IMG/VR virus record: IMGVR_UViG_3300037783_000023
Coordinates: 1-56,706 of that record
Strand: one strand, 5' to 3'
Source of the DNA: a virus
Lineage: Duplodnaviria > Caudoviricetes
DNA length: 56,706 bases
The stretch's first letter is position 1; the number at the start of each line of letters is the position of its first letter. The notes beneath the pieces were generated by a model. That model made no database searches. It was not told where the DNA came from and worked only from the letters and a program-made list of their open reading frames with translations. Positions 6,464 to 28,848 of this stretch are shown in pieces. The translations under genes and the position numbers were made by a program.

Positions 6464-7486
6464 TCAGCTGCGCGTCCAGCCCTTGAGCGCCAGCCTCCGG
6501 CGGCTCGCTGATTTGGTGTAGTGCAGGGCCATTGTGCCGCCCTCCCAGCCAAACATCGCCTCAAGCTCGTGGACCGTGGCACCCGCCTCGGCCGCCCGGA
6601 CAGCCGCGATCTTGCGCAGCCCGTGGGCCGTCTTATCGACCCCGGCCTCGCGGCACGCCCGGCGAAACATATTGCCGAAGCTCTCCTTGGTCAGCGGCCG
6701 ACCGTTCGCCCCGACGATGAAGTGCATGTCGCCCGTGGGGCCCGCGTCCAGCGTGGCGCGCAGCGGGGCCAATATCGGGATGATCACCTCGGTCCCGGTT
6801 TTCTCGGTCCGGATCGTCGCCACCCCCTCGCGGACGTGCTGGCGGCCGAGCGTCACAGCATCGCCCCGACGGAGCCCGGTGTAGAGGAGGACGTCCATCC
6901 AGACGCGCTCACGGGTCCCGAGCGCCCATCGCTCGTGGTAGCGCGTGACCTCCTCGTCGGTCCACACGGCAAAGCCCCCGGCCGACTTCGCCTTGGGCGC
7001 GCGGACCCCGAGCGTCGGGTCCTCGGCCACATGGCCCATCGCCAGCGCCCACTTGAACAGGCCGGACATGGTCTTGCGGAACGACGTCGCGGTGCCGGGC
7101 TTGTTCGCCCGGCGCTCGATCCCCTCGGCGATGGCCTGCCGGTCGATGGTCGAGAACGGGGCGTCTCCGGCGCTCTCAATCACACCCCGCAGGATCAGCT
7201 CGCGCTGGCGCTGGGTGGAGGGCGCGAGGTCTCGAAATGCCGTGGACCGCCGATACTGGTCGACCAACCACTCAAGCGATTTAGTATCCACCCGCCTCGG
7301 GGCTGGCGCTGGGCCCGCACCGCCCGTCAGCGCGGCCATGTAGGCGGCGTCAAAGCCCGGGTCATAGAGGTCGGGCAGGCGCACGCGCGGGCCATGCTGG
7401 CGGCGGAAATAATAGCAGACGCGGCCGTGCCGGGTCCGCTCGCGGGATACATAGGGCGGGATCTTCTTGGGCATGCCGTCCATCAC
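6464..7486 (-). CDS. int: Tyrosine integrase
   Basis: YTGLRRGD (R), TEKT (K), HGLRK (HxxR), FGW, HYT (Y) catalytic motifs. Confidence 0.95.
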   Translation of the reverse strand: MMDGMPKKIPPYVSRERTRHGRVCYYFRRQHGPRVRLPDLYDPGFDAAYMAALTGGAGPAPAPRRVDTKSLEWLVDQYRRSTAFRDLAPSTQRQRELILRGVIESAGDAPFSTIDRQAIAEGIERRANKPGTATSFRKTMSGLFKWALAMGHVAEDPTLGVRAPKAKSAGGFAVWTDEEVTRYHERWALGTRERVWMDVLLYTGLRRGDAVTLGRQHVREGVATIRTEKTGTEVIIPILAPLRATLDAGPTGDMHFIVGANGRPLTKESFGNMFRRACREAGVDKTAHGLRKIAAVRAAEAGATVHELEAMFGWEGGTMALHYTKSASRRRLALKGWTRS

Positions 7487-9798: not shown

Positions 9799-10057
9799 CG
9801 CTCTGCTCCTTTGTGGCTTGGTAGGCGGCGAGGGCAATTCGCTGGTCCGCGACTTGGTCAATACCAATGGTGACGGATATTCCATTGGGCGCAGGCACAA
9901 ACGGCGTGCGGCGTATCAATCGCTCCATCTCGTCCGCCAGCGCGTCCGCCTTGGCGAGTTGCGCCTCAAGGGCTTCGATGCGGGTTAGTGCTTGCGGTAT
10001 CAAATGTCCGGGGTCGTACTCCCACCATTCCCTCATTCGCTCTTTAAGATCATCCAT
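9791..10057 (-). CDS. Hypothetical coiled-coil protein
   Basis: AAGGA RBS; MDDLKERM...IEALEAQL. Confidence 0.6.
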   Translation of the reverse strand: MDDLKERMREWWEYDPGHLIPQALTRIEALEAQLAKADALADEMERLIRRTPFVPAPNGISVTIGIDQVADQRIALAAYQATKEQSDG

Positions 10058-10086
10058 CACAAAATCCTTAGTTGTAGCGGGGCATG

Positions 10087-10509
10087 TCAGCTGTCCTCCG
10101 CGACCGCCCGCAGTGCGGCTTTGAGCGCGCTGCGGGCTTCCGATACCGTCGTCCAGTGCTCTGCGTCGTCTGAGGCATTGAGCACCCGGAACATGGCGTT
10201 CAGGGCGACCCGCCACACTTCGCCGTCGTCGATTATCTCGAGCAGGGTCACGGCCGCGCGCCGAGCCTCCCGCCTCTTGGCCGATGGGGCCGTTCGGACG
10301 CTGCGAAACATCGGGCCTCGGATCGCGGCCGCCTCCCGCAGCGCTTCCTCCCGCGCAGGCTCAAGGGCTGCGATGGCGGCGTCGGCTTTGGATAGTGCGA
10401 TCTCCTGACAGCACTTGAGGTATTCTTGGCAATCTTCGCAGTCGCAGTTTGCGGCTGTATCAAAGGCGTCAGGGTCGATAGCCCGCGCGACACGTTCCCG
10501 CTTATCCAT
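10087..10509 (-). CDS. Hypothetical protein
   Basis: ERVARAI...ADAAIAAL motif common in phage early genes. Confidence 0.6.
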   Translation of the reverse strand: MDKRERVARAIDPDAFDTAANCDCEDCQEYLKCCQEIALSKADAAIAALEPAREEALREAAAIRGPMFRSVRTAPSAKRREARRAAVTLLEIIDDGEVWRVALNAMFRVLNASDDAEHWTTVSEARSALKAALRAVAEDS

Positions 10510-10897
10510 CGGTCTTGTCCTTCGTGATGAGGGCGAGGATGGCGGAGGTATCTGCGGTGCCCACCCCGCTCAGCCGCTCAAATAGAGCGATCAGCTCCTC
10601 CTCTATCGCCTGTAGCGTGATGTCGCGTTCCTCGTGGCCGCGACACGGGCGGCATCCGCAGGTCCGCATCCGGTCGATCAAATCGAGCATCCACCGGCGC
10701 TCGTGGGCGAGCTGGCCGCGCGGCCGAATGACCGCCTCGTGGGTGGTCGCGCAGGTCGCGCAGAGCACCGCGATCCCGATGGCGGGGGTCTCCTCGCTAG
10801 GGTCCCACGTCGCGCAGTATGCGGGGTCCGAGATATTCGCGTCATAAAACGCCTTGCCACCGCAGCGGCCGCACTTTGCATAGTCAGCCATCGCCAT
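10502..10897 (-). CDS. Hypothetical zinc-binding protein
   Basis: CGRC, CATC, CGCRPC motifs; TGATG overlap. Confidence 0.6.
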   Translation of the reverse strand: MAMADYAKCGRCGGKAFYDANISDPAYCATWDPSEETPAIGIAVLCATCATTHEAVIRPRGQLAHERRWMLDLIDRMRTCGCRPCRGHEERDITLQAIEEELIALFERLSGVGTADTSAILALITKDKTDG

Positions 10898-11112
10898 CAC
10901 TTGCCGCCTTTCGCGCGATGCGCGGCCAGCGCCTCGCGCCCCTTGTCGGTGATCGCGGTAACGAAAAAACCGCACGGGACGAGGTATCCGGCGTCCAGCA
11001 AGCGGTGGAAAACATCATCCCGAACGCGGTTTGCCTTCCAGTTATGGGCTCTCCCGTCCTCCCATTTTGCGAGGGCGACCGCTTGCGGTTTCGTCAGATT
11101 GCGTGTCGTCAT
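10897..11112 (-). CDS. Small winged-helix-like hypothetical protein
   Basis: LTKPQ...LLDAGYL...ITDKGREAL. Confidence 0.55.
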   Translation of the reverse strand: MTTRNLTKPQAVALAKWEDGRAHNWKANRVRDDVFHRLLDAGYLVPCGFFVTAITDKGREALAAHRAKGGK

Positions 11113-11693
11113 GTCGTCTCTCCTTTCGCGCGGGCAATGGCGGCAATGGCGGCCGCCATTGCCAGCAACATCGGTTCCATAGAGTGGAGGCGGAAATCGT
11201 CGTGCTCTTTTGACAGGCGGACAGCTCGTCTTGCGACTGCGACCAGTTCCTCGAGCGCTTCGAGCAGATTTGGCGCGGCAGCGTCCGGCTCCTTGACCAG
11301 CTCCATCGTCCGCGGGAATACGGCTGCCAGCATCCTCCGCTTCTCGTCGTCCGTGAGCAGCTTGCTCGCGAGCAGCGAGTTCATCGTTTTGGGGTCAACA
11401 TACTCCGGCGCGACCAGAGGGGTCGTCACCGCCGGGGGGCCGTTTCTGGGGGTTTCGGCAGTCGGAAACGCGAAAACGACCTTGAATTTCCCATCGCCAA
11501 CAATCTCTGCACGGGGCTTGCCCGTGAAATGAGCGAGCCGGGCCGCGACTTTGACGTCTGGGTGATCCATGCAGGCGCGACGGACAAAGTCCGCCCTTTC
11601 GTCCGCCAGAGCCTTCTCGCGGTCTGAGATACTTTTGAATTCGGCCTTTTGATCGTCCGTCATGCGGATGAAGATCTCGATTTGGTGCGTCAT
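11109..11693 (-). CDS. Hypothetical protein with C-terminal AAAPxLLEAL phage motif
   Basis: AGGAG RBS; ATGA overlaps. Confidence 0.6.
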   Translation of the reverse strand: MTHQIEIFIRMTDDQKAEFKSISDREKALADERADFVRRACMDHPDVKVAARLAHFTGKPRAEIVGDGKFKVVFAFPTAETPRNGPPAVTTPLVAPEYVDPKTMNSLLASKLLTDDEKRRMLAAVFPRTMELVKEPDAAAPNLLEALEELVAVARRAVRLSKEHDDFRLHSMEPMLLAMAAAIAAIARAKGETT

Positions 11694-12103
11694 GCCTGTG
11701 CTCCTTTCTGCCGAGCCGCGAGCAGCGCGTCGGCGTATTGATAAGCATTGGTTGCCATATCCTCCGGGGTCGGGAGGCCTGCGTCCGGAGTGGCCCAAGC
11801 GCCGGCGACGATCCCGACCAGCACCCGGATCGCGATTTCATCGCGCAGCTCGGCGTCGTCGAGCGATGGCGGCTCGGATTGGCGCGGGCGGTCGGCGTGG
11901 GTCTCCGCCAGCTCGCGCAGCACCCGGTTCTGTGCCTCGGCAATCTCGCGCCACGTCTTGCCGCCCGCATTGCGCAGCGCGCGGACGTCGCCCTCGCGGA
12001 CGTCCAGCAGCTCTGCGGCCGAGGTCACGCCGAGCTGTCGCAGGGCAGCCATTGCTCGGATTGAGAGCTCAAGGTCGTCGGGCCACTTTTCAATTTTACT
12101 CAT
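11690..12103 (-). CDS. RNA polymerase alpha-CTD-like domain fused to an RD.xA...AY..ADA.. module
   Basis: DDLELSIRAMAALRQLGV...LRNAGGKTWREI aligns by eye with RpoA CTD (DDLELTVRSANCL...PNLGKKSLTEI); TCCACGGAGA RBS. Confidence 0.75.
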   Translation of the reverse strand: MSKIEKWPDDLELSIRAMAALRQLGVTSAAELLDVREGDVRALRNAGGKTWREIAEAQNRVLRELAETHADRPRQSEPPSLDDAELRDEIAIRVLVGIVAGAWATPDAGLPTPEDMATNAYQYADALLAARQKGAQA

Positions 12104-12165
12104 GTATCGTCTCCGTGGATTGGTGCGGGGCCGGAGCCCCGCGATTTCGTTCAGCTCGGGTGAGC

Positions 12166-12468
12166 TCAGTTCGTGCCGGCCTTCGCCCGGTAGCAGCCGG
12201 TCTCCCAAATCGCTCGATAGTCCTCGACTTCGCGCGCCTGATATTCCTCGGACGTGAAGCGGGGCCGCTCGTAGGCCATCAGCAGCATTTGGACGTAGCG
12301 CTCGCCGCGCGCTGCCATGTCGGGCATCAGCGTAGAGATTGCGGTTCCGGCCTGCCGCGCGACCATCACGGCTGCGGCGTCGTCACCGGCCTCGCGGCAC
12401 TCGTCTGCGGTGGCCGCGGTGCTGGCTGCGAGGGTCAGAACGGTGGCAATTGCGAACATCGTTTTCAT
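12166..12468 (-). CDS. Small secreted protein
   Basis: MKTMFAIATVLTLAASTAATA signal peptide; two Cys; AAGGA RBS. Confidence 0.7.
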   Translation of the reverse strand: MKTMFAIATVLTLAASTAATADECREAGDDAAAVMVARQAGTAISTLMPDMAARGERYVQMLLMAYERPRFTSEEYQAREVEDYRAIWETGCYRAKAGTN

Positions 12469-12535
12469 AGGGTCAGTCCTTTTGTTTGCGAGCTGTTGCT
12501 CAGGGGGTTTGTGGGGCGCAGGCCCCGCAACGGGC

Positions 12536-12745
12536 TCACGCCCATTGTTCGTCATTGGTCTGTTCTCGGTGGGCGCTGCGCGCCCGGCGGACATAGGGCC
12601 AGTCGTCGCCGAGCAGGAGCGCACGGTCGCGCAGGGCCTCGGATTGATAGTGGAAACCGAGCCACGACCACGTCACGTCGTCGGTCTCGCCCCGGCCGGA
12701 GAGGTGCAGGTATCGGCGCGTCTCCGGGTTCCAGAGGCGGTGCAT
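12536..12745 (-). CDS. Hypothetical protein
   Basis: GAGG RBS; could alternatively start at GTG 12784. Confidence 0.5.
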   Translation of the reverse strand: MHRLWNPETRRYLHLSGRGETDDVTWSWLGFHYQSEALRDRALLLGDDWPYVRRARSAHREQTNDEQWA

Positions 12746-12780
12746 CCGCGGGTCCTCTTTGCTGGTGAACGGCTTTAGCG

Positions 12781-13302
12781 TCACTCGCTGTCCTCCTGCT
12801 CTGGCGCGTGGCGCAGCATGTAGCTGGCCAGCAGTATTTTCTGGATTTCTGGCCAGTGCTCGCTCCCCTCGATCCACGGGACGAGGTGGTCGCGGACGTA
12901 GGCCATCGCGTCGTCCATGAATGCCGAGAATTCATCCCCGCTCATCGCCCCGAAACTGGTCGAGACCGGCCGCGCGATTATGGCGACCGCCCCCTCGGGG
13001 ACGTCGTGGCGCACGCGCTCCATGCGCGTCATGGGGCGGCTGCGTGTTCGGCCGGTGGCGACGACGAGGTCGTCTTTGACGCTCTCTGCTGTCCACGTCG
13101 CCCCCGCCGGGCCGCTATTAAGCGCCTCGGCGACGTAGGTAACAAACGCCCAAAAAAGGCGGTGCTGCTCAGGGCTGCGGGGGCGCTTCGGCTCGATCTT
13201 GTAGATCGACCCAAACTTGAGCTTCTCGATTGCGAGCTGGCCCGCCTTCGAGGTCGGGACCAGCACGTTCTCGATCCGCCGCACGAAGAACGGGTAGGCC
13301 AT
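12781..13302 (-). CDS. DUF1367/NinB(Orf)-like recombination accessory protein
   Basis: PRSPEQHRLFWA ... STSFGAMS..EFS motif; near ssb/recT. Confidence 0.65.
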   Translation of the reverse strand: MAYPFFVRRIENVLVPTSKAGQLAIEKLKFGSIYKIEPKRPRSPEQHRLFWAFVTYVAEALNSGPAGATWTAESVKDDLVVATGRTRSRPMTRMERVRHDVPEGAVAIIARPVSTSFGAMSGDEFSAFMDDAMAYVRDHLVPWIEGSEHWPEIQKILLASYMLRHAPEQEDSE

Positions 13303-13493
13303 CAGATCAGCTCCTTCTCACGAGCCACGCGCTCCGGCATCCGCGCAACGTAGACCCCGCCATAGGCGGTCGGGTTCAGCGTCACGGTGGAGAGGGGCAG
13401 CCAGACGGCTGCCTCCTTGATCCCGGTGTGAAGCAGCACCTCGGTCGCGGTGCGCTCCTCCACCGCGACGGTCACATCGACGAGCCTGCTCAT
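13302..13493 (-). CDS. Conserved small phage protein
   Basis: VWLPLS...[12 protein letters not shown] motif; coupled to ssb. Confidence 0.6.
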
Positions 13494-13975
13494 GCGCGAC
13501 ACTCCGGTGCGAACGGGATTTCATCGTCAATGACGCCGCCCGGGCGGCCGCCGGAGCCGTAGCCCGAGCCACCGCCGGAGCTGCCCCCATATCCGCCGGA
13601 TGATCCGCCCCCGTCGCCGTCTCTGCGGCTGTCCAGCAGCGTCAGCGTCCCTCGGTAGGGCCGGAGGACCACTTCGGTCGTGTAACGGTCCTGACCGGAT
13701 TGGTCCTGCCACTTGCGCGTCTCAAGCTGGCCCTCGATGTAGACCTTCGAGCCCTTGGCGAGATACTGCTCAGCGATGTTGGCTAACGGCTCGGAGTGGA
13801 TGGCAACGCTGTGCCACTCGGTCCGCTCCTTGCGCTCGCCAGAATTGCGGTCCTTCCAGCTCTCGGACGTGGCGATCCGCAGGTTGCAGACCTTGCCCCC
13901 GTTCTGGAACGTGCGGACCTCCGGGTCGCGGCCGAGGTTGCCCACGATAATGACCTTGTTCACTGATCCAGCCAT
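13490..13975 (-). CDS. ssb: Single-stranded DNA-binding protein
   Basis: [21 protein letters not shown]...DDEIPF. Confidence 0.97.
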
Positions 13976-14212
13976 CTATTCGTCTCCCTGCGCTGTCGGT
14001 GTGGGGGTCGGGTGAACCAGCTCCATTGCGCGAGCGCGGCCCCTCATGCGGCGGATGGCCCCTCGCTCCTCCAGCTGCAGCAGGATGCGGTGGACGCCGG
14101 ATTTGCCCATGTTCAGCGCGTCGGCAATCTCGTCGAGCGATGGGGCGTACTCGTGTTTTTTGATGTAGCCCGCGATAAAATCGCGGGCCTCCATTTGCCG
14201 GGGCGTCAGCAT
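13976..14212 (-). CDS. Stand-alone LexA N-terminal DNA-binding domain (no peptidase domain)
   Basis: MLTPRQ...PSLDEIADALN..KSGVHRIL..LEERGAIRR...RARAMELV resembles alphaproteobacterial LexA N-terminus; 78 aa; TGATG overlap with recT. Confidence 0.85.
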   Translation of the reverse strand: MLTPRQMEARDFIAGYIKKHEYAPSLDEIADALNMGKSGVHRILLQLEERGAIRRMRGRARAMELVHPTPTPTAQGDE

Positions 14213-15417
14213 CACTGCCCCCCCTTCCCGGCGCTCTCGGCCGCCCGGTAGATTTTGGCCTGCGCCCCCTCGGGCAGCGTGGCGATCTGGTCGTCCCACA
14301 AAGCGAGGACCGCGTCGGCGGCATCCGGCGTGTCGCACTCGCCAATGTCCGACATGATCCGGTCGACTAAGCCGCTCGCCTCGTCAGCGTCGGGCTCAGC
14401 CGCTTGGGTGCTCTCCTGCTCCGGCTCCTGCTTCGGCTCCGCCTGTGCCTGTGCCTTTTCGCGCTCCGCAGGCTGCGCCGCCTCCTTCGCCTCGGATTGC
14501 TCCTTGGGGGCGCTGTCCTGCGGCGCCGACTGAGCGGCCTCTGCCGCCTGACCATCGTCCTCGGGTGTGACGTCGCTGGCGGCACCTTCGGCCTCTACGG
14601 CCTCCGCGTCGATGGTTTGACCGGCCTCGTCGTCCTCGGGTGTGACGTCGAGTTCCTGAGCGGGGTTCATGGCGAAATTGGCGAAATCTGCCTGCCCGCC
14701 ATCGACCGTGAGGGCGTCCCGGAATTCGACCGAGAGCGGGAGGTATTTCGCCAGCGCGCGGATGGCGGTTTTCTTCGCCATCTCGTCCTCATGGGTGTGC
14801 CACGGGGATTTCGCGGTCGATCCGAATTTGACGGCTGTCTGCCACCCCTGCGAGCCGTCGCGGATTTTGAGCACCTTCGACCAAGGCAGGACGACGTAGG
14901 CGTGCCCTCCGTCGCGGAATTTGGCGATGGCGTAGGCGTGCAATTTGTCGCCAGCCTGCGCGCCCGGGACGTGGCGCAGGCGCGCTTCGGTCCCCTCCTC
15001 GTATTCCCACACGTCGTCGTCCGAATAATGGACGTTCGCACTGATGGACGTGATGTGCCCGGACCGGCGCGCGAGGTCGATCAAGCCCTTGTAGCCGACG
15101 ACCAGCTGGACCTCCGTGATCTTCTTGCGATTGTTTTTGAAGGGGATCAGGTAGGCGTGGCCCATGATAGTGTTCGGCTCAAGCCCGAGCCCGGCGCAGG
15201 TCATGAGCCCCCCGAGGAGGCTCATGGGGTCGCACTCGGCGAGTTTCGGCGTCGTGCGCATGGCGTTCGCCATGAGGCGCATCATGCGCTCCGGCTTCAT
15301 GTGCGCAGCCGCGACCTGCTGCAGCTGCGCCTTGGCCTGCTCATTCCAGAGAAGCTCCTTCACGTTTGTGACCTGCGTGAGGGGCTTGGATTTGATCTTC
15401 TCGATGGCGGTGCTCAC
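14212..15417 (-). CDS. recT: RecT-family single-strand annealing protein with acidic C-terminal extension
   Basis: LGLEP...AYLIPF...GYKGLIDLARRSG...EMAKKTAIR. Confidence 0.9.
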   Translation of the reverse strand: MSTAIEKIKSKPLTQVTNVKELLWNEQAKAQLQQVAAAHMKPERMMRLMANAMRTTPKLAECDPMSLLGGLMTCAGLGLEPNTIMGHAYLIPFKNNRKKITEVQLVVGYKGLIDLARRSGHITSISANVHYSDDDVWEYEEGTEARLRHVPGAQAGDKLHAYAIAKFRDGGHAYVVLPWSKVLKIRDGSQGWQTAVKFGSTAKSPWHTHEDEMAKKTAIRALAKYLPLSVEFRDALTVDGGQADFANFAMNPAQELDVTPEDDEAGQTIDAEAVEAEGAASDVTPEDDGQAAEAAQSAPQDSAPKEQSEAKEAAQPAEREKAQAQAEPKQEPEQESTQAAEPDADEASGLVDRIMSDIGECDTPDAADAVLALWDDQIATLPEGAQAKIYRAAESAGKGGQ

Positions 15418-16166
15418 AGCTTCGGCTCCTCAATAATCTCGATGCCGGGGATGGTGATGTCCGCGCCCTTGGCGGCGCGAATATCGGCGTTCGCCAGCCG
15501 GGTGATGCAGTCGATCAGGTCGGGGTGCCCCCGGTAGTGCAGCATCGCCTGATTGATATTGGTGATCCGTGCGGAGCGGACCGTCCGCAGGCTGGTGCTC
15601 TTGGACCCGGTGCCTGTGGCGGAGCTGACCTTGAGCTTGCGCTCGGCTTCTGCGGCCTTTTGGGCGGCTGCGGCCTGCGCAGCCTTTTCCTCGGCCTCGA
15701 CCATCGCGGCCGCATTGGCATTGCGCTCGGCAATCTGGCGCTCGCGCTCGGCCTCCTCAGCGGCCTTGCGCGCCGCCTCCTGCTCCGCCCGGCGGCGCTC
15801 CTCGGCGATCTTCTCTTGCTCCTTGAGGTAGGCTTCCAACGGGGCCTTCGCGAGCCTGCCTGCCCTTTCGATCACTTCCGTGATGCGCTTGTAAGCGGCG
15901 TCGACCGCTCTGCCCGCATCAAGGTGGGGTTTTTTGTCCGCCGTCCGGCGCTCATCAATTTCTTTCAAGCGCTTGCGGGCCGCGTCCAAGAAATCCTTAA
16001 GTTCACCGGCCTTGGTCTCGGTCTCGATCTTGGCCTTGGCCCATTCGCCAGCTGCGTCAGCGATGCGCTCGGCCTCCGCCATCATGGCAGCCACCGCCTC
16101 CTCGTCATAGGCGGGCGGGCGATTGTGGCCGATTGCGGCGGCGGTGGTGGGGGTCGTCTCTGTCAT
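15414..16166 (-). CDS. Coiled-coil protein (Gam/Gp157-like context)
   Basis: IGHNRPP start, long EAAR coiled coil, IPGIEI end; coupled to recT. Confidence 0.6.
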   Translation of the reverse strand: MTETTPTTAAAIGHNRPPAYDEEAVAAMMAEAERIADAAGEWAKAKIETETKAGELKDFLDAARKRLKEIDERRTADKKPHLDAGRAVDAAYKRITEVIERAGRLAKAPLEAYLKEQEKIAEERRRAEQEAARKAAEEAERERQIAERNANAAAMVEAEEKAAQAAAAQKAAEAERKLKVSSATGTGSKSTSLRTVRSARITNINQAMLHYRGHPDLIDCITRLANADIRAAKGADITIPGIEIIEEPKL

Positions 16167-16180
16167 AAATTGCCTTTCGG

Positions 16181-16561
16181 TTAGGGTCGGATTTGATCGG
16201 CGCGCAGCCGGATCGGGGCGTGGGTCGCCGCCATTTCGGGATGGCGACGCTGTAGGTCTTTAAGTTCGAGGTATTCAGCCCGACTGATCGGGCGCTTGCA
16301 GACGGAGAGCCACGCCCGGCGGGGGTCGCGCGGCTCGCCGTTGATTTCGCAGACCATGCGCTCGTCGCAGGTCAGCTCCCCGTGCTCGTCCACCTCGCGG
16401 ACGATTGAGATTGAGGCGGGGACGAACGGGCCGCCTTTGACGAGCCGGGTTTTATACCAGCCGCAATGGGGCTCCCCCTCGTGGATGGGGACTGGCGCCC
16501 CGGCCAGCGCAGCACGATGCCACGCATACAGCCGGGAAACGGGGGTCGGCTGGCGGATCAT
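16181..16561 (-). CDS. Hypothetical protein
   Basis: GWYKTRLVKGGPFVP motif; coupled. Confidence 0.65.
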   Translation of the reverse strand: MIRQPTPVSRLYAWHRAALAGAPVPIHEGEPHCGWYKTRLVKGGPFVPASISIVREVDEHGELTCDERMVCEINGEPRDPRRAWLSVCKRPISRAEYLELKDLQRRHPEMAATHAPIRLRADQIRP

Positions 16562-16872
16562 TTTCCGCCCCCCTCAGCCGCGATCATGGCGTCGGCGACA
16601 GCGTAGCAGCCCTGAGCAAGCCTCTCCGGGGTCAGCTGATTTTCCGGGTGCGCGCTCAGAAGTGCTTGCATCGCCAATTCCGCAAGACGCTTGCGCTCCG
16701 CGGCCTTGCCGTTCTGCCGGGTCAATTCGCCTGAAAGGTAGAGCTTAAGCGCGTGGTTGATCTCAGTGCTCATCGACCGGCTGTTCTGATCGGCCGAAGC
16801 CGCCACCCGCTCCTTGAGCTCGGGCGCCATTCGCAGCCCATAGGGCGCGACCTGTTTGCTCTCCGCGCTCAT
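16558..16872 (-). CDS. Arc-family ribbon-helix-helix protein + C-terminal shared module
   Basis: YGLRMAPELKERV...NSRSMSTEI; C-term CYAVADAMIA. Confidence 0.8.
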   Translation of the reverse strand: MSAESKQVAPYGLRMAPELKERVAASADQNSRSMSTEINHALKLYLSGELTRQNGKAAERKRLAELAMQALLSAHPENQLTPERLAQGCYAVADAMIAAEGGGK

Positions 16873-17459
16873 GGCTTGCGCTCCCTTTCGGCCATCATCG
16901 CGTCGGCGATCAGGTAGGCTTTGCGCGCGACGAGGGTGTCTTGCGCGCAGAGGTCCGCAAGGCCTACGAGCGCGGCCTCGGCGAAGCGGTCGCGCATGTC
17001 TGCTGCAGGAGCGTTGTTGTAGTGGGCGTCCAAAGCCTCGCAGATTTCTGCGTTGACGGACTTCTCTCCCGACGCCGCAGATACCTGCTCATAAAGCGCC
17101 TGCGGGACGCGGATCGTGTAGCGCGTGTATTCCTGCTGGCGCGCCGATTGACCGCCAAGGTGCGCCTGCAATGCGAGAACGATCTCCCCGTTCATCGTTC
17201 TGTTCGCCTCAGATGCTTTTGACTTAACTCCATCCCGCAGGTCGTGCGGGATGCGAATGCGAAGCTCTGCGTCTCCACGCGCCATGTGGTCGTCTCCCTG
17301 AATTTCGTGATTGATCGCCGCGCTCAAGATTTGAACGATCTCGGCGTTCATTGAGCGGCCCGCTTTGCGGGCCCGCTTTTTGATCTCGTCGCGCATCCCG
17401 CCCGGAAGGCGGACCATCATTTTGGGCAAATGCCGTGATGGGCTGTCTTGAACGCTCAT
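16869..17459 (-). CDS. Triple Arc-domain protein + C-terminal shared module
   Basis: MVRLP...RSMNAEI; LRIRIP...RTMNGEI; YTIRVP...KSVNAEI; then MRDRFA...AYLIADAMM. Confidence 0.8.
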   Translation of the reverse strand: MSVQDSPSRHLPKMMVRLPGGMRDEIKKRARKAGRSMNAEIVQILSAAINHEIQGDDHMARGDAELRIRIPHDLRDGVKSKASEANRTMNGEIVLALQAHLGGQSARQQEYTRYTIRVPQALYEQVSAASGEKSVNAEICEALDAHYNNAPAADMRDRFAEAALVGLADLCAQDTLVARKAYLIADAMMAERERKP

Positions 17460-18580
17460 ACAGACACCAGATCGAGCAGCTTGCCGCCCTTGCGCTCGAG
17501 TGCGACCCGGGCGTCCTGATGCTCGATGCTCTTTGCGTGGGCTGTGACGCCGGTCACCGCGTCCCACACGGTCTCAATTGGGCGGCTCTCCTCCCGCTCA
17601 TGCGCCGCCTTGATCGCGGTCGCCTCCGGCCGCGTGAAACGCTTAAGCAAAAAGGCGTCGAGGTCGTCGTCCACCCGCTTCTGCTGCGCCTCCCGGATGG
17701 TCTGCTCGATGGGCGCGGCGCTGGCGGCTGAATACTCCATCAGCACCGGGCTGATTTCCTCCAGCCAGCGGTCAGGAGCCGATGCGGTGTGGCGGAGCCT
17801 GATTTCCTTGAAGCCCTCGGCTCCCCACACGATGCGGTTTGAGCAGGCGTAGTCGAACAAGAAAAAGGCGGCCCCGATGGACTGGCTGCCGACCTCGCTG
17901 TTCCAGACAAAGAAACCGCGAGCCAGCGAGCCGGAGCGCCCGTTCCGGCGGTTCGGCATCTCGACCCGGTTCACCTCGTCGGCCAAGAACACGAAGATGT
18001 CACGATCTGATCCATAAATGGTGGTGTTCGCCTTGGTGATCGGCACGGCCTGTCCGAATTCGCCCGGCACCCGGAAGTCGCCGGTGCGGCCGTCACCGAA
18101 TTTGTCCGTAAGGGCGGTCACGATTTCCTCGTTCCACACCCTGCCGTAACGAGGCCCTGTCGCGGCGCGCAGTTCGTTGTGCGCAATAAGCTCGCCGCCC
18201 ATTGCGACCGGCTCGTTCTCGGTCCGCAGCAGCCCGACCTCCTCAGCGTCGCGATGGAACCGCAGGCAATAATTGAGGGCGTCGGCCGCAATCGGCGCAG
18301 GCAGTTTGCGCAGCTCGCGCGCCGAGAACCCTGCGAGCGAGGCGAGCTGGCCGAATGACCAGTGCGTCGGGTCGACGATCGTCCCCTCGTTATCGATTGT
18401 GAGGCCCCACTTGGGGTCTGCCGGGTGCGGCTGGACCTCAATGCGGCGGGTGGTCGTCACCGAGGCGACGGAGCGTTCGCGCTGCCCGGCGACCGCGTCG
18501 CGCAGGTCGGTCAGGCTCAAGAACCGCTCGTCGGCCGGGCGCGAGGCCCACTGGCGGGATGCGTGCATAAGTGTCGTCAT
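17456..18580 (-). CDS. DUF932-family protein
   Basis: QWASRPADERFLSL...THWSFGQL...GFFVWNSEVG...CSNRIVWG. Confidence 0.75.
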   Translation of the reverse strand: MTTLMHASRQWASRPADERFLSLTDLRDAVAGQRERSVASVTTTRRIEVQPHPADPKWGLTIDNEGTIVDPTHWSFGQLASLAGFSARELRKLPAPIAADALNYCLRFHRDAEEVGLLRTENEPVAMGGELIAHNELRAATGPRYGRVWNEEIVTALTDKFGDGRTGDFRVPGEFGQAVPITKANTTIYGSDRDIFVFLADEVNRVEMPNRRNGRSGSLARGFFVWNSEVGSQSIGAAFFLFDYACSNRIVWGAEGFKEIRLRHTASAPDRWLEEISPVLMEYSAASAAPIEQTIREAQQKRVDDDLDAFLLKRFTRPEATAIKAAHEREESRPIETVWDAVTGVTAHAKSIEHQDARVALERKGGKLLDLVSV

Positions 18581-18610
18581 GTTCGTGTCTCCGTGGATTT
18601 GGGGGTGGGC

Positions 18611-18748
18611 TCAGTTCAGGCCGAGCCCGTGGCCGATCAGCAGGGCCAGCCAGCCCGTGCCGAAAATCGAAAGCGCGCCGATCAGGTCGCCGAGCAGCTC
18701 GGCGTAGCGGCCGCGCTGAGAGTGGGGGGTGGTCGGTTTGTGTTCCAT
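18611..18748 (-). CDS. Small membrane protein, first gene of PL operon
   Basis: GGAGG RBS; single hydrophobic helix. Confidence 0.6.
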   Translation of the reverse strand: MEHKPTTPHSQRGRYAELLGDLIGALSIFGTGWLALLIGHGLGLN

Positions 18749-18750
18749 AC

Positions 18751-18765
18751 GTTCCTCCGTTGTTC
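18751..18765. promoter_or_regulatory. Alphaproteobacterial LexA (SOS) box over PL start region/RBS
   Basis: GTTC-CTCCGTT-GTTC, exact GTTC-N7-GTTC. Confidence 0.65.
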
Positions 18766-18769
18766 GCGG

Positions 18770-18820
18770 AACATAACCAACAATTTGTGGATCAGACAAG
18801 CGAAAAAACACAAATTGTTG
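18770..18820 (-). promoter_or_regulatory. PL-like promoter with two repressor operators
   Basis: TTGTCT (18794-99)-N18-TATGTT (18770-75); operators CAACAATTTGTGG (18778-90) and ACACAAATTGTTG (18808-20). Confidence 0.7.
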
Positions 18821-18856
18821 AAATTAAATTTTGAGGCTGGACACAGATCTAGACTT

Positions 18857-18871
18857 GTTCTTAATTCGTTC
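18857..18871 (+). promoter_or_regulatory. LexA (SOS) box immediately upstream of ORF 18874
   Basis: GTTC-TTAATTC-GTTC, overlapping a -10-like TTAATT 17 bp after TGGACA (18838-43). Confidence 0.75.
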
Positions 18872-18873
18872 TC

Positions 18874-19065
18874 ATGTGCAGGACTTACAACGACACAGAG
18901 CTAGACCGTCGCCTCGATCGCATGATTGAGGTGGCAACCGAGCTCGGGTGTCCGCTGGACCATGTCGTCGAGCACATGGGGCGGTGCGATCAAAGTGATT
19001 TTCGGAGGTTCTCCGGTAGCCCGTCGCTTCTGCCCCGGTACACGAAGTCAAGCGTGACGCCGTAA
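18874..19065 (+). CDS. Small SOS-regulated protein, candidate antirepressor
   Basis: ATG 2 bp after LexA box; likely leaderless; 3' end overlaps the repressor gene convergently. Confidence 0.55.
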   Translation: MCRTYNDTELDRRLDRMIEVATELGCPLDHVVEHMGRCDQSDFRRFSGSPSLLPRYTKSSVTP

Positions 19066-19247
19066 CGAGCGCAAAGCTCTATCGCTGCCTCCACCGGGAT
19101 GCGGCGAAACCCGCGTTCCCAGTTATTATATTGAGCCAAGTTAAAGCGGTTCTTGAGCGCCCAATCTTTTTGATTGAGGTCCGAAAAGGCCCTGCGGATG
19201 CGTACCAGACGCTGCCCGATCTCATGGTGTTCAAACGTGTCACTCAT
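18990..19247 (-). CDS. Prophage repressor, HTH_XRE only (85 aa)
   Basis: IGQRLVRIR...NQKDWA...YNNWERG...YGVTLDFVY; divergent from cro; no S24 autopeptidase. Confidence 0.85.
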   Translation of the reverse strand: MSDTFEHHEIGQRLVRIRRAFSDLNQKDWALKNRFNLAQYNNWERGFRRIPVEAAIELCARYGVTLDFVYRGRSDGLPENLRKSL

Positions 19248-19531
19248 GGTCGAGTGATCCACGAAATGTGAACCGCCAAGCAAGCAACCACTTGTGGGCT
19301 TGCATTTTCCCACAATTTGTTGATTTTGAGGGGATGCAGACAGCTAAAGAAATCTCCGCCCGCTTCGGGCAAAGAACCATCGCCGCAACGCTGGGCGTCA
19401 GCGTCGGGGCGGTCAGCAACGCCGTTGTCCGGGGTCAGTTCCCGGCGAGCTGGTACGTCGCAATTCAAAGCCTGTGCAACCGTGACGGCGAGCTCTGTCC
19501 CGTCGAGGCATTCGCTTTCAAACCTATTCAT
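19244..19531 (-). CDS. Possible antisense ORF (95 aa) opposite cro, stop overlapping repressor start
   Basis: GGAGGAGG-N7-ATG within hairpin+TCCACGGAG element; TGA overlaps repressor ATG (ATGA). Confidence 0.35.
   Translation of the reverse strand: MNRFESECLDGTELAVTVAQALNCDVPARRELTPDNGVADRPDADAQRCGDGSLPEAGGDFFSCLHPLKINKLWENASPQVVACLAVHISWITRP
19259..19330 (+). promoter_or_regulatory. OR/PR-like region with operator repeats
   Basis: CCACAATTTGTTG (19310-22), CAACCACTTGTGG (19285-97), degenerate CCACGAAATGTGA (19259-71); TTGCAT -35 at 19300-05. Confidence 0.7.
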
Positions 19532-19681
19532 CAGTGCGCCTCCTCCGTGGAAAGTGAAGCGGGCGACGGCGCTTGTTCTGCCGCCCTGATAAACATTGTC
19601 CCAGCGAGTTCGGGCGAAAGTCAATCTAAAGAAACTTTTTGTCAGCCCAACCACGACAAATCGCTTCGGGGCGCGCTGTGA
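19334..19681 (+). CDS. Cro-like HTH protein
   Basis: FGQRTIAATLGVSVGAVSN...GQFPASWY; divergent from repressor. Confidence 0.75.
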   Translation: MQTAKEISARFGQRTIAATLGVSVGAVSNAVVRGQFPASWYVAIQSLCNRDGELCPVEAFAFKPIHQCASSVESEAGDGACSAALINIVPASSGESQSKETFCQPNHDKSLRGAL

Positions 19682-19682
19682 C

Positions 19683-19907
19683 ATGCCGTGTCACTTCTGC
19701 GGCGCAGCACTGGCCCCCTACGGCTACGGGCTGCCCGGGCTGCGCACTGACAAGCCAGAGGGCCGTCGCGGCTATCTGTGGGCGTGCGCGGATCACCGGG
19801 ACGCCGCTGAGCACAAACGAAATCAGGCAATCGGTGTCGGCCTGTCCGGAGCGCGCCAAGCGCCCCGGGGAAACGACACTTCCCCCACGCAACAAGGTGA
19901 AACATGA
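19683..19907 (+). CDS. Small zinc-finger protein
   Basis: CHFC ... CADH. Confidence 0.6.
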   Translation: MPCHFCGAALAPYGYGLPGLRTDKPEGRRGYLWACADHRDAAEHKRNQAIGVGLSGARQAPRGNDTSPTQQGET

Positions 19908-20245
19908 CCTATCCCCACAATTCTGATTTTTCGGTCAGCGACACGCAGCTGATGGCCCACCTCGCGGAGATTGAGAGCGCGAAGGACGAGGTCAGCAGCG
20001 CCAGCGGCGACCTGCGCTCCACGATCAAGCGCATCCTCGAGGACGCGGGCTACGAGAAGGGGGCGCTGCAGATGGTGCGCGACCTCGACGCTCTCAGCGA
20101 CACAAAGCTCGCCGACCGCCTCCGCACGCTGTGGCCGATGCTGGACGCCATGCGGCCGCATTGGGAGGAGCGCATCCGCGACATGCTCGACCGCAAGGCG
20201 TCCGAGACCGGCGACATGGACGCTGACATGCAGGGCGGCGCCTGA
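19904..20245 (+). CDS. Hypothetical protein, weakly GapR/DUF2312-like
   Basis: HNS...QL...IE...AGY..GAL..V helical pattern. Confidence 0.5.
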   Translation: MTYPHNSDFSVSDTQLMAHLAEIESAKDEVSSASGDLRSTIKRILEDAGYEKGALQMVRDLDALSDTKLADRLRTLWPMLDAMRPHWEERIRDMLDRKASETGDMDADMQGGA

Positions 20246-25433: not shown

Positions 25434-26051
25434 ATGCCGGAGCCCCTGATGACCCCGTCCGTTGACCTGCTGCCCGCCGCAGACCTCGCACCGTATGAGG
25501 CGAACGCTCGCATCCACACGCCAGAAGCGATCGAACGGCTGGTCTCCATCATCGAGGAGATGGGCTGGACCGCCCCGATCCTTGTGGACGCCGACGGTGT
25601 GGTCGCTGGTCACAAGCGGCGTCTTGCCGCCCTGACAATTTACGAACGCGGGGGAGTGATCCGCCTGCCGTCCGGAGAGGCTTTGCCGCAGGGCATGGTG
25701 CCCGTCATAGACGTGTCCGGGTGGAGCGAAGCTCAGCGACGCGCGTACATCATCGCGGACAATCAGACGACGCTGGAAAGCAGCTGGGACGAGGGCGTCC
25801 TGCGCTTGGAACTGGAATGGCTCAGCGAAACCGCTGAGATTGAAATGGAAGTTACGGGGTTCTCCGGCGACATGCTGGCGGACATTCTGACGCCGTGGGA
25901 AAGCGACATAGAGGCGCTCGAAAGCAAGGGTGCCCACGTCGAGGGCATCGTGAAGCCGATCACTGTGCGGGTCGCGCAAGAGCACAAGCCGGACGCCATC
26001 GCTGCAATCAAGGAAGCGCTCTCCAAGCTGGAAATCGAGTTTGAGCTGTGA
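25434..26051 (+). CDS. ParB/Srx N-terminal domain protein
   Basis: LAPYEANARIH...GWTAPILVD..GVVAGHKR...AYIIADNQ. Confidence 0.85.
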   Translation: MPEPLMTPSVDLLPAADLAPYEANARIHTPEAIERLVSIIEEMGWTAPILVDADGVVAGHKRRLAALTIYERGGVIRLPSGEALPQGMVPVIDVSGWSEAQRRAYIIADNQTTLESSWDEGVLRLELEWLSETAEIEMEVTGFSGDMLADILTPWESDIEALESKGAHVEGIVKPITVRVAQEHKPDAIAAIKEALSKLEIEFEL

Positions 26052-26884
26052 AAGAGCCAAGCAAGCTAAACATTTTGATCGCCTACCCCTATTTCAAAGG
26101 GGCCACAGTCAACACTGTTATTGAGGCGCAAGAGAAAATCCGTCTCGTCGTGGACAGTGGAGCATTCACCGCTTGGAAGGCTGGCAAGCCGATTGAGCTA
26201 GACGACTATTGCAGGTTCCTTGAGGGTCTGCCCGTTGAGCCGTGGCGCTATTTCACGCTCGACGTGATCGGCGACCCCGGCGCGACACTCAAGAATTACG
26301 AGACAATGCTGCGACGTGGGTTCAAGCCCGTGCCGATCTTTACGCGCGGCGAAGACCCGTCCGTCCTTGACGACCTTTACAAGACCTCAGACGTGGTGGG
26401 CGTCGGGGGGCTGGTCGGCACTCAAGGCAACGCTGAGTTCGTTAGCGGGATCATGGCCCACGCGGCCGGCCGACGTGTCCACCTCCTCGGCTTCACTCGC
26501 ATGGCCCATCTTCGGGCCTTTCGGCCGTATATGTGTGACGCCTCCTCTTGGGAGAGCGGTGCGCGTTATGCCTCTTTGCCGCTTTATCTTGGCTCCGGTA
26601 AAATCAAGGTCGTGGGCAAGCAGGATTTCAGGTCTCGCCCTTCCCAAGAAATTTGCCGTGCCATCTGTCGGCTCGGTGTCGATCCGCGATTGCTTGCGAT
26701 GGCTGGCGCTTGGACTGGCGGCTACTCGGTGAGCAGGCGGCTTTGCGCGCTGTCTGGCGTGGCTTTGAGCCGTGATGTGCAGCGCAACTTGGGCACAAAT
26801 TATTTTCTCGCCGTCGCGGCGGATTGCGGATTGCGGCTCTTGATCGAGGCGCATGACTTCTTCACACAAGGACCCCCCCCATGA
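26048..26884 (+). CDS. dpdA: DpdA-like (TGT-fold) deazapurine DNA transglycosylase
   Basis: VDSGAFTAW, LDVIGD, PVPIF, GVGGLV, VHLLG, DASSW motifs; adjacent to que genes. Confidence 0.7.
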   Translation: MKEPSKLNILIAYPYFKGATVNTVIEAQEKIRLVVDSGAFTAWKAGKPIELDDYCRFLEGLPVEPWRYFTLDVIGDPGATLKNYETMLRRGFKPVPIFTRGEDPSVLDDLYKTSDVVGVGGLVGTQGNAEFVSGIMAHAAGRRVHLLGFTRMAHLRAFRPYMCDASSWESGARYASLPLYLGSGKIKVVGKQDFRSRPSQEICRAICRLGVDPRLLAMAGAWTGGYSVSRRLCALSGVALSRDVQRNLGTNYFLAVAADCGLRLLIEAHDFFTQGPPP

Positions 26885-27633
26885 GTAAATCTGCTTTGGT
26901 GGTCCTGTCCGGCGGACAGGACAGCACGACCTGCCTATTTTGGGCGAAACAGAATTTCGACACGGTTCACGCCGTGACCTTCGACTATGCGCAGCGGCAC
27001 AGCCGCGAGATTGAGGCCGCACGCAAGGTCGCGGAGCTGGCCGTCGTGGACAGCCATACGGTCCTAAGCGTGGGGCCGCTGCTCGGTGGCCGCTCCCCCC
27101 TCACCAATGCGGACGAGGAGCTGGAAACCTATAACGACTTCGAGGAGATGGACGCGGTGATCGGCGACCGGGTGGAGCTCACCTTCGTCCCGATGCGGAA
27201 TGCTTTTTTCCTCACGCTCGCCGCGAATGTGGCGGTGGTTCGAGACGTGTTCGACTTGGTGACAGGCGTTTGCCAGCAGGATAACGCCAATTATCCGGAC
27301 TGCCGACAAGGCTTCATCGACGCGCAGGAGGCGACCATCAACGCGGCTCTCGGGATCGATCGCTTCCGCATCCACACGCCGCTGATGGATATGACCAAGG
27401 CCGAGACAGTCCACTTGGCGAAGTCCCTGCCCGGGGCTTATGAGGCGCTGGCGCACTCGCACACGGCGTATTCCGGCGAGTATCCGCCGATCACTCGTGA
27501 CCATGCAACGGTTCTACGCGAGCAAGGGTTTCTTGAGGCCGGTCTTCCTGATCCCCTGATCGTCCGCGCGTGGCGCGAGGGTCTTATGGACCTGCCCCTG
27601 ACTGAAAATTATTCAGAGCTGCGTGAGGCTTAG
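26881..27633 (+). CDS. queC: 7-cyano-7-deazaguanine synthase, variant lacking C-terminal Zn cysteines
   Basis: SGGQDSTTC, FDYAQRH..E, TFVPMRN, YPDCR. Confidence 0.92.
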   Translation: MSKSALVVLSGGQDSTTCLFWAKQNFDTVHAVTFDYAQRHSREIEAARKVAELAVVDSHTVLSVGPLLGGRSPLTNADEELETYNDFEEMDAVIGDRVELTFVPMRNAFFLTLAANVAVVRDVFDLVTGVCQQDNANYPDCRQGFIDAQEATINAALGIDRFRIHTPLMDMTKAETVHLAKSLPGAYEALAHSHTAYSGEYPPITRDHATVLREQGFLEAGLPDPLIVRAWREGLMDLPLTENYSELREA

Positions 27634-27726
27634 CCGTTGCTCGGCTGGCCTTGGCTCTTGGTGGACGCCGCACAGCAACACGCGGCGTCGCCAGATCAAA
27701 ATGACTTCTCGCCCCCGGAAAAACAC

Positions 27727-28404: not shown

Positions 28405-28847
28405 AGTTCACATCGACCAAGACATACGGCCACGAAATCGGTCTGTCCGCAGCCTTCCGCCAGTGGAAGGCGGACAGCCATTGCCGGTTTTTGCACGGCT
28501 ACGCGCTCGCCGTGCGCTTTGAGTTCGAGAGCGAGGATCTGGACGCCCGGAATTGGGTCGTGGATTTTGGCTCGCTGAAATCCCTTAAGGCTCGGCTGCA
28601 AGACACTTTCGACCACAAGACGCTCGTCGCCGAGGACGACCCTCACATGGCTTGGTTCGAGGAGGCCCATCAACGCGGGATCGTTGATCTGGTCAAGGTC
28701 CCAGCCACCGGCTGCGAGCGGTTCGCTGAGATGATTTTCGAGGTGACGGAGCTTTGGCTGATCGACAATGGTTACGCCCCCCGGTGCCGGGTGGCAGCCG
28801 TAGAAGTCCGCGAGCACGGCGCGAACAGCGCAATCGTGAGGGCATGA
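28401..28847 (+). CDS. queD: 6-carboxy-tetrahydropterin synthase
   Basis: HCRFLHGY, WVVDFG..K, FDHK, GCE, VREH..NSA. Confidence 0.9.
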   Translation: MKFTSTKTYGHEIGLSAAFRQWKADSHCRFLHGYALAVRFEFESEDLDARNWVVDFGSLKSLKARLQDTFDHKTLVAEDDPHMAWFEEAHQRGIVDLVKVPATGCERFAEMIFEVTELWLIDNGYAPRCRVAAVEVREHGANSAIVRA

Positions 28848-28848
28848 C

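Follow-up and report, generated by a model that had tools for sequence, protein, structure and literature searches.

The window analysed here, that is the whole stretch of 56,706 bp, is a complete IMG/VR record with direct terminal repeats whose gene layout, as judged from PHROG and Pfam scans of a crude gene call, is that of a lambdoid temperate phage. Its leftward early operon harbours, between recT and ssb, a small gene whose product consists of a LexA winged-helix DNA-binding domain alone and is referred to as mini-LexA in the following. The three adjoining genes are arranged as follows:

14212..15417, minus strand: recT, encoding a single-stranded DNA annealing protein (PF03837, 150.5 bits; phrog_148)
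13976..14212 including the stop codon, minus strand: mini-LexA gene, 78 aa, assigned by PF01726, AlphaFold2 and Foldseek
13490..13975, minus strand: ssb (PF00436, 126.9 bits; phrog_44)

The open reading frame (ORF) of mini-LexA extends from the ATG at 14212-14210 to the stop codon at 13978-13976. Its location between recT and ssb, as given in a preliminary description of this DNA, is borne out to the base: the start codon and the stop codon of recT overlap by a single nucleotide (TGATG), and the ATG of ssb (13975) directly follows the mini-LexA stop codon. Because of this overlap and of the abutment on the other side, recT, mini-LexA and ssb can be regarded, to judge from their sequence, as one translational unit in which mini-LexA is coupled to recT. 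The GC content at third codon positions amounts to 0.80, similar to that of the neighbouring genes. A longer reading of 120 aa starting at GTG 14338 was rejected, as it gains nothing except overlap with recT and the same domain then begins at residue 44. The homologues described below share the MLT start with mini-LexA.

Among relatives with a named host, the nearest, with a RecT that is 71% identical, is a prophage found in Thalassobacter stenotrophicus CECT 5294; further, more distant elements with named hosts are found in Jannaschia, Paracoccus and another Rhodobacteraceae genome. As these nearest relatives reside in Rhodobacteraceae, the host of the phage is apparently a member of this family, and the label “roseophage” used in the preliminary description appears reasonable.

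The 78-aa protein matches the Pfam family PF01726 (LexA_DNA_bind) with 51.4 bits (cut-off 23.7; E-value 9e-14), residues 2-62 corresponding to profile positions 4-65 of 65, and no Pfam match to Peptidase_S24 (PF00717) is found in it. An AlphaFold2 model calculated from a 96-row alignment (predicted local distance difference test, pLDDT, 85.6) comprises three helices (residues 4-20, 26-33 and 37-49) and a two-strand wing (residues 53-55 and 63-65); the remaining tail, residues 66-78, is acidic and predicted to be disordered. In a Foldseek comparison with the PDB, ranks 1-9 are all occupied by LexA structures (among them 3k2z, 3jso, 3jsp, 1jhh, 1jhf and 1lea) with root-mean-square deviations of 0.7 to 1.2 Å. 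Both motifs named in the preliminary description are present, i.e. K37-S-G-V-H-R42 in the recognition region and R59-A-R-A62 in the wing, and its characterisation of the protein as a LexA N-terminus devoid of the peptidase and dimerisation domain thus holds. Mini-LexA shares 33 of 77 residues (43%) with the N-terminal domain of Thalassobacter stenotrophicus LexA and is 43-55% identical to host LexAs altogether. It resembles alphaproteobacterial LexA in family, fold, four of the five contact residues of helix III and the LEERG-IRR and RARA wing segments, which are common to both proteins. It differs from it in its length of 78 aa and in the absence of the linker, the Ala-Gly cleavage site, the S24 domain with its Ser/Lys dyad and the C-terminal dimerisation domain; the genuine Thalassobacter LexA (locus L024) measures 230 aa and possesses both the cleavage-site region and the C-terminal domain. 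Since linker, cleavage site, S24 domain and dimerisation domain are missing, mini-LexA cannot be inactivated through activated RecA (RecA*) and is unable to dimerise in the manner of LexA. A homodimer prediction for two copies of the 78-aa protein yielded a score of 0.01 against a mark of 0.42 and counts neither for nor against self-association. Kim and Little reportedly observed in 1992 that the isolated head of Escherichia coli LexA binds operators cooperatively.

To trace the gene in related phages we made use of a RecT-based IMG/VR scan, which returned 14 loci, and of five genome loci. A mini-LexA homologue of 77-78 aa, 52-57% identical, is present in nine of nine loci in which RecT is at least 71% identical and downstream DNA is available (L003-L011). 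There it follows recT and one extra ORF and precedes ssb or ninB. This extra ORF of 128 aa, which fills the gap between recT and mini-LexA in L003-L011 (e.g. L009:7164-7550), is without Pfam match and does not occur in the window. Among the five genome loci the gene is found, again in this slot, in the Thalassobacter prophage. A further phage, L025, possesses a Sak4-like annealing protein in place of RecT, and there a 55%-identical mini-LexA is still situated directly before ssb and ninB. Nucleotide substitutions between the homologues fall mostly on third codon positions (for instance 1, 3 and 13, or 6, 3 and 14, at first, second and third positions, respectively). Its retention in nine of nine loci, the third-position bias and its retention beside ssb in L025 argue that mini-LexA is under purifying selection and constitutes a conserved, selected part of the recombination module. 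The same data bear on the notion that the gene is nothing but a passively carried, functionless fragment of a host lexA gene. Such an origin might be suspected from the likeness to host LexA and from a survey of 121 Rhodobacteraceae genomes, in which one PF01726 gene is present in 115 genomes, none in five (E-value ≤1e-6) and a second one solely in the Thalassobacter genome carrying the prophage. A decaying fragment, however, would hardly persist in nine of nine close relatives, next to two kinds of recombinase, with its frame intact and with mostly third-position substitutions. Furthermore, the gene is translationally coupled, and an identity of merely 43-55% to host LexA speaks against a recent pick-up. 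We therefore consider this explanation highly improbable.

At greater distance the gene is absent. No mini-LexA gene was found in the IMG/VR loci L012, L014, L015 and L016, whose RecT is 56, 49, 35 and 34% identical, respectively, or in the genome loci L018, L019 and L020 (RecT 47-50% identical); in L013 (IMG/VR) and L021 (genome locus) the contig ends inside recT. The idea that the slot between recT and ssb is always occupied by a winged-helix protein found no support: hhalign assigns the ORF of L018 a probability of only 0.1 when compared to the mini-LexA alignment. No Pfam match was obtained for the slot ORFs of L018 (76 aa; also present in L014) and L020 (a related ORF), and that of L019 gave helix-turn-helix matches below threshold only. 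In two loci devoid of mini-LexA a GapR-like DNA-binding protein (PF10073, 101 and 105 bits) is encoded shortly after recT (L012:7494-7934 and L019:3659-3949).

For E. coli LexA, operator contacts of helix III have been described for Ser39, Asn41, Ala42, Glu44 and Glu45 (PMC3091678). According to a HMMER alignment to 1lea, the equivalent positions of the phage protein are occupied by Lys37, Ser38, Gly39, His41 and Arg42. The LexAs of Thalassobacter and Paracoccus exhibit Ser, Ser, Gly, His and Arg at these positions, i.e. four of the five are the same as in mini-LexA, at an overall identity of only 43%. A parallel situation is encountered in coliphage mEp390, whose gp43 (SfV p42-like, 106 aa) is encoded beside rusA among early recombination genes and shares the domain-only architecture with mini-LexA, as do proteins of Bacillus phage 11143 and of the Pelagibacter phages HTVC104P and HTVC106P, all of them uncharacterised. 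Like mini-LexA, gp43 keeps the recognition helix of its host: at four of the five contact positions it retains Ser, Asn, Ala and Glu of E. coli LexA, the exception being Glu44, which is replaced by Ala. Over the aligned region about 36 of 75 residues are identical to E. coli LexA according to a hand count on the printed alignment. Thus, phage mini-LexAs from two host clades appear to track the recognition helix of their own host while the remaining domain drifts, and this we regard as the best argument for host-type operators being the target. Most likely, mini-LexA recognises GTTC/GAAC half-sites spaced by 11 bp in the same way as the alphaproteobacterial LexA of its host. The density of SOS-type boxes near such genes was compared as well: boxes are modestly enriched in the vicinity of mini-LexAs with a host-like helix (seven in 95 kb versus one in the reversed control), whereas those with other helices show no such difference (13 in 298 kb versus 12), both comparisons being based on small numbers.

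The sites in question are found in the control region of the presumed leftward early promoter (PL) of the phage itself:

18751..18765, minus strand: SOS-type box 1, reading GAACAACGGAGGAAC in operon orientation, within the left-operon leader
18846..18871, minus strand: SOS-type array GAAC-N7-GAAC-N7-GATC (operon strand), of which 18857-18871 is designated box 2
18611..18748, minus strand: first gene of the left operon, encoding a hydrophobic 45-aa protein with homologues in the relatives
18874..19065, plus strand: gene of 63 aa, oriented away from PL and overlapping the cI-position gene at its 3' end in antisense; by its setting a candidate LexA-controlled antirepressor
from about 18750 downward, minus strand: leftward early operon with genes for a DUF932 protein, two Arc-like proteins, an exonuclease-like protein, RecT, mini-LexA, SSB and NinB

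The GTTC-N7-GTTC box was defined earlier in Rhodobacter. In Caulobacter it is listed as the SOS box (PMC9578287, Table 1), and in the upstream regions of Rhodobacteraceae lexA genes a perfect GAAC-N7-GAAC is present in 22 of 22 cases, 11 of which contain overlapping tandem boxes similar to the array of the phage. The window contains three perfect boxes while 1.56 are expected, and at least three occur in 20 of 100 shuffled sequences, so that the count alone is not significant. Their placement is. Among 32 boxes with at most one mismatch in the core only three are intergenic, namely those at 18751, 18846 and 18857, which all lie within 18751-18871, and of 2000 Markov-simulated genomes no more than 22 contain two perfect boxes within 150 bp. 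The remaining perfect box (27238-27252) was discarded as a functional site because it lies inside the QueC-like gene, has no counterpart in the relatives searched and probably arose by chance. Box 1 is located between a promoter-like pair of hexamers, whose spacer contains an operator-like palindrome, and the ATG of the first gene, its second half being part of the Shine-Dalgarno sequence of this gene. It is perfect, with a varying spacer, at the homologous place in L004, L005/L017, L008 and L025, and the complete records of L004, L005 and L008 contain no other perfect box. The array, separated by 2 nt from the start codon of the divergent 63-aa gene, is kept as GAAC-N7-CAAC in L004, L005 and L008. 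The preliminary description had noted two SOS boxes in this genome and assumed a mini-LexA gene expressed from PL. Both statements are supported: the two boxes are the only intergenic perfect ones, reside in the PL control region and are conserved in relatives of the same immunity type; mini-LexA lies downstream of a PL-like promoter, and no terminator-like site was found on the operon strand from 18750 to 13976.

It had further been suggested that mini-LexA could serve to re-close the boxes of the phage and that the co-occurrence of gene and boxes reveals a closed circuit. As a conserved function, the former has to be abandoned. While the gene is accompanied by a perfect box 1 in L004, L005/L017, L008 and L025, three relatives, L006, L009 and L010, possess mini-LexA together with a PL leader bearing one change in each half-site and lack box 2. 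The conserved function of the protein can therefore not depend on boxes of the phage, and, provided that mini-LexA does mimic LexA, it must in general be directed at the SOS regulon of the host. The expected association of gene and boxes applies to part of the relatives only: what accompanies the upstream box is not mini-LexA but the combination of a short cI that cannot be cleaved with a small divergent gene. A closed circuit stays plausible for the window phage, where DNA damage and the ensuing loss of LexA would open both the 63-aa candidate antirepressor gene and PL, and mini-LexA made from PL would then close both of them again.

What we infer beyond the identity and conservation of the domain concerns its DNA specificity, its oligomeric state on DNA, its ability to repress and the benefit which the phage draws from it. 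We give nearly an even chance to the interpretation that mini-LexA is a RecA-insensitive surrogate of LexA acting on host-type SOS boxes. Upon entry into the lytic cycle it would be produced along with RecT and SSB from the early left operon as a small, stable LexA DNA-binding head which does not respond to RecA. Two or three copies would settle side by side on a box or an array and take the place of host LexA once the latter has been cleaved in consequence of RecA* formation, so that the SOS promoters of the host stay shut. The LexA sites of the phage itself, i.e. the box in the PL leader and the array at the 63-aa gene, would be shut as well. A number of proteins with two LexA heads in tandem per chain and without S24 domain are encountered among the homologues (P0004, P0006, P0008, P0010, P0026, P0037 and P0070; 140-180 aa); these single-chain “dimers” hint at two heads per site as the working unit. 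Retention of the gene beside ssb in spite of the exchange of RecT for Sak4 in L025 fits a role tied to functions that generate single-stranded DNA, which is the SOS signal. That a free head can repress is suggested by the report that N-terminal fragments of LexA and CI continue to do so until they are removed by ClpX(P), a removal on which completion of the SOS response or of prophage induction depends (PMC10584840). Mini-LexA resembles such fragments in being a free DNA-binding head, but is genetically encoded and carries a different, disordered and acidic tail. Moreover, phage superinfection has been described to turn on recA and lexA in a Sulfitobacter roseobacter (PMC7305329). Together with the raised density of boxes, these analogies would fit the host regulon as target. 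In a more general form, and with slightly less assurance, we propose that RecA-proof LexA heads endowed with the recognition helix of the respective host are encoded by temperate phages from several host clades. They would be made along with the recombination genes that produce single-stranded DNA and, once host LexA has been cleaved, would re-repress the SOS regulon as well as switches under LexA control, both those of the phage and those of competing prophages.

Several observations weigh against the proposal of a LexA surrogate. The contact residues of mini-LexA agree with those of host LexA in four rather than all five positions, and the homologues of L003-L011 have Asn where the host has Gly, that of L004 in addition Tyr instead of His. 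Without a dimerisation domain the affinity for a direct repeat may be low. The conservation of box 1 may result from its role in ribosome binding, and, as outlined above, L006, L009 and L010 maintain the gene with degenerate box 1 and no box 2. The more distant RecT-type relatives L012, L014, L018, L019 and L020 do without mini-LexA and contain unrelated small ORFs in its slot. In a survey of distant relatives (see below), 12 of 47 LexA-like genes are located just upstream of the large terminase gene, most of them with a different helix. Finally, the precedent set by gp6 of the Bacillus phage GIL01 is that of an activator with a site of its own.

To our knowledge, GIL01 gp6 is the only characterised phage mini-LexA. 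It is described as a truncated LexA homologue which binds its own palindrome overlapping the -35 element of promoter P3 and activates P3, with Lys38 being essential (PMC6182141). Accordingly, mini-LexA might be a private transcription factor of this type, i.e. a drifted head on an operator of its own which turns on, or sets the timing of, other phage genes such as middle or late ones and has no business at SOS boxes. The two proteins have much in common: like gp6 of the tectiviruses GIL01 and Bam35, mini-LexA is phage-encoded, falls into the range of about 66-78 aa, consists of the LexA winged helix only and is an early-operon product of a phage with a switch connected to host LexA. Mini-LexA and pGIL01 ORF6 (gp6) share 26 of 66 residues (39%; pairwise E-value 4e-18), which compares with only 43% identity to host LexA, and the “LexA-like protein” of AP50 is 40% identical over 47 aa. 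Besides the distinct site and mode of action of gp6 itself, the change from Gly to Asn at a contact position in close relatives and the persistence of the gene in relatives lacking intact boxes would also be in line with a private operator. In contrast to gp6, however, mini-LexA belongs to a recT-ssb module, its phage being tailed, lambdoid and equipped with a cI of its own, and at two contact positions it possesses Ser38 and Gly39, as alphaproteobacterial LexA does, where gp6 has the essential Lys38 followed by Thr. In addition, the operator-like repeats recognised by eye (no systematic motif search was made) are situated where operators of cI are expected, and the parallel retention of the host helix in mEp390 gp43 argues for host-box specificity. 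On balance, a gp6-like role appears rather unlikely, albeit to be taken seriously.

With respect to its proposed effect, mini-LexA may be compared to anti-SOS proteins. The plasmid protein PsiB, which is encoded beside ssb, acts on RecA by protein contact. GIL01 gp7 is an anti-SOS device acting on LexA by protein-protein contact (PMC6182141). With both of them, mini-LexA would share the damping of the SOS response of the host by a mobile element during production of single-stranded DNA, and with PsiB also the location of its gene beside ssb. Unlike either of them, it would act by direct occupation of operators.

The recombination genes surrounding mini-LexA suggest yet another role. Apart from recT and ssb the module comprises the following genes:

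15414..16166, minus strand: exonuclease-like partner of RecT (phrog_10477 “exonuclease”, E-value 1.1e-28; without Pfam match)
12781..13302, minus strand: NinB/Orf-like recombination mediator (phrog_319, E-value 8.8e-15)

Mini-LexA could be a non-transcriptional DNA-binding accessory of the recombination or replication module, which loads or targets RecT, Exo or SSB or which marks a site on the phage DNA. This would account for the tight coupling to recT and ssb and for the preservation of the slot when Sak4 replaces RecT, and it would agree with family members adjoining genes for Holliday-junction resolvases, DnaB, a RecE-like exonuclease and methyltransferases. Yet we know of no recombinase system which requires a LexA-type winged helix, and this counts against such a function. 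The retained sequence-specific contact residues point to operator recognition instead, and the more distant RecT modules manage without the protein. We regard an accessory function of this kind as improbable.

Host LexA itself presumably acts at the immunity region of the phage, for which the following features are observed:

18990-19590: immunity region
18990..19247, minus strand: repressor at the cI position, 85 aa, helix-turn-helix alone (HTH_3, 20.1 bits, below cut-off; no S24)
18779-18791 and 18809-18820: operator-like 12-nt repeat, two inverted copies recognised by eye, presumed cI operators
19311-19322: third operator-like copy, between the cI-like gene and the gene at the cro position

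As the 85-aa repressor consists of a helix-turn-helix domain alone and lacks S24, it cannot be cleaved under the influence of RecA*. Homologues with 73-74% identity occupy the same place in L004, L005 and L008. The divergent ORF is uninterrupted in all four phages of this immunity type, its length being exactly 63 aa in each, and outside cI it displays mostly third-position changes (e.g. 1, 1 and 14 for L004 versus L005). Neither the Pfam nor the PHROG scan yielded a family match for its product. A pair of -35/-10-like elements seen by eye would render the gene leaderless, and a consensus scan found no promoter hexamers. LexA-controlled antirepressor modules are known from phages 186 (Tum), Gifsy and N15. 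The window phage exhibits the corresponding traits, namely a main repressor without self-cleaving domain and, close to the immunity region, a small gene whose promoter carries an SOS box of the host type. The 63-aa gene and the array thus look like a candidate for a LexA-controlled antirepressor or a convergent-transcription module, and by analogy with this architecture binding of host LexA to the array is likely. In L003 a different short repressor (102 aa; HTH_3, 47 bits) is combined with a perfect box of its own, which is found 12 nt upstream of a divergent 55-aa ORF not homologous to the 63-aa gene. A 225-aa repressor with helix-turn-helix and S24 domain, both identified by Pfam in L009 (S24: PF00717, 53.2 bits) and by eye in the other three, is present in L006, L009, L010 and L025, and in these relatives the insert with the divergent small gene is missing. 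The rule that a perfect PL box occurs only together with a non-cleavable cI could not be maintained, as L025 combines an S24-type cI with a perfect leader box; in its corrected form the pattern holds for the upstream box and the divergent small gene only, which go with the short non-cleavable cI. Between PL and the recombination genes of the window two neighbouring Arc-like ribbon-helix-helix genes (16558-17285, minus strand) and a gene for a 374-aa DUF932/phrog_1362 protein (17456-18580, minus strand) are found. They are absent in L004, L005 and L008, in which a distance of only about 600 nt separates cI from the 126-aa gene.

Stand-alone LexA heads are by no means restricted to this group of phages. 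An exhaustive HMMER search returned 4503 cluster representatives at an E-value ≤0.001; in view of this number, the mere two close homologues obtained in a word-indexed protein search reflect the sensitivity limit of the latter. The best 150 of the 4503 representatives are mostly 70-140 aa long, with a minority of full-length LexAs. A tblastn search of IMG/VR yielded 110 relatives, and among the 80 which were kept, 61 are distinct and two are full-length LexA. The protein of a close relative matches 76 of 50,697 cultured-phage records, including pGIL01 ORF6, Bam35, AP50, coliphage mEp390 as well as Pelagibacter, Synechococcus and Pseudomonas phages. In the Atlas, many clusters dominated by viruses bear the name “LexA DNA binding domain-containing protein”. 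In the literature searched, the supplements of the GIL01 paper with alignments of gp6 homologues being outside its scope, we found no description of a stand-alone LexA head in roseobacter or other alphaproteobacterial phages. Stand-alone LexA heads are thus common in phages and almost unstudied, and the protein of the window joins a known kind.

The genomic contexts of such genes were surveyed at 47 distant IMG/VR loci by means of 95 flanking ORFs from a crude longest-ORF call, which include some second neighbours; four loci were left out. They differ from the recT-ssb setting of mini-LexA and include the nin region and positions beside terminase and methyltransferase genes. Eight of the 47 adjoin DNA methyltransferase genes, others those of Holliday-junction resolvases, DnaB or a RecE-like exonuclease. 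The LexA fold appears to fulfil several tasks in phages since the contexts differ, and family membership alone does therefore not fix the function. In the terminase-adjacent loci (L039, L045, L052, L055, L056, L066, L072, L073, L084, L089, L090 and L098) the terminase gene (phrog_38) is located directly next to the LexA-like gene or one small ORF away, and the proteins concerned could represent small subunits of terminase or regulators of the late phase. The terminase ORF of L090 encodes 827 aa and matches its profile in two separate parts, perhaps owing to an insertion. For the gene of the window a role as small terminase was dismissed, the large terminase gene being far away:

29917-31950: large terminase gene

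If mini-LexA acts as proposed, it would give a virus a simple means of overriding the DNA-damage response of its host, an uncleavable head being put in the place of a cleavable repressor. In marine bacteria of high abundance, this would have consequences for mutagenesis, for the timing of early phage genes and for the induction of gene-transfer agents and of other prophages in the same cell. Moreover, the numerous phage genes that bear no annotation beyond “LexA DNA-binding domain protein” would gain a function. Should the protein turn out to be gp6-like instead, it would be an ordinary phage regulator. A related prophage with the same gene and PL box is carried by the cultured strain Thalassobacter stenotrophicus CECT 5294.

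Outside the left operon and the immunity region, the window contains these features:

6464-7486, minus strand: integrase gene (PHROG/Pfam scan)
plus strand: rightward operon with genes for an O-like replication initiator, RuvC, a queuosine/7-deazaguanine cluster, terminase, portal, protease, capsid, tail and lysis proteins

A megablast search with positions 10000-20000 of the window produced zero matches to cultured phages. The 7.8-kb contig L021, which is assigned to a metagenome-assembled genome of an uncultured Anaerolineales bacterium, encodes exo, p126 and recT products 69-94% identical to those of the window phage; its bin assignment appears doubtful. The cluster at 26048-29511 (plus strand) comprises genes for queuine tRNA-ribosyltransferase-like, QueC-like, GTP cyclohydrolase, QueD-like and QueE-like proteins, which suggests 7-deazaguanine modification of the phage DNA. 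Just upstream of it, at 25449-26051, a ParB-like nuclease or methyltransferase-related gene is located.

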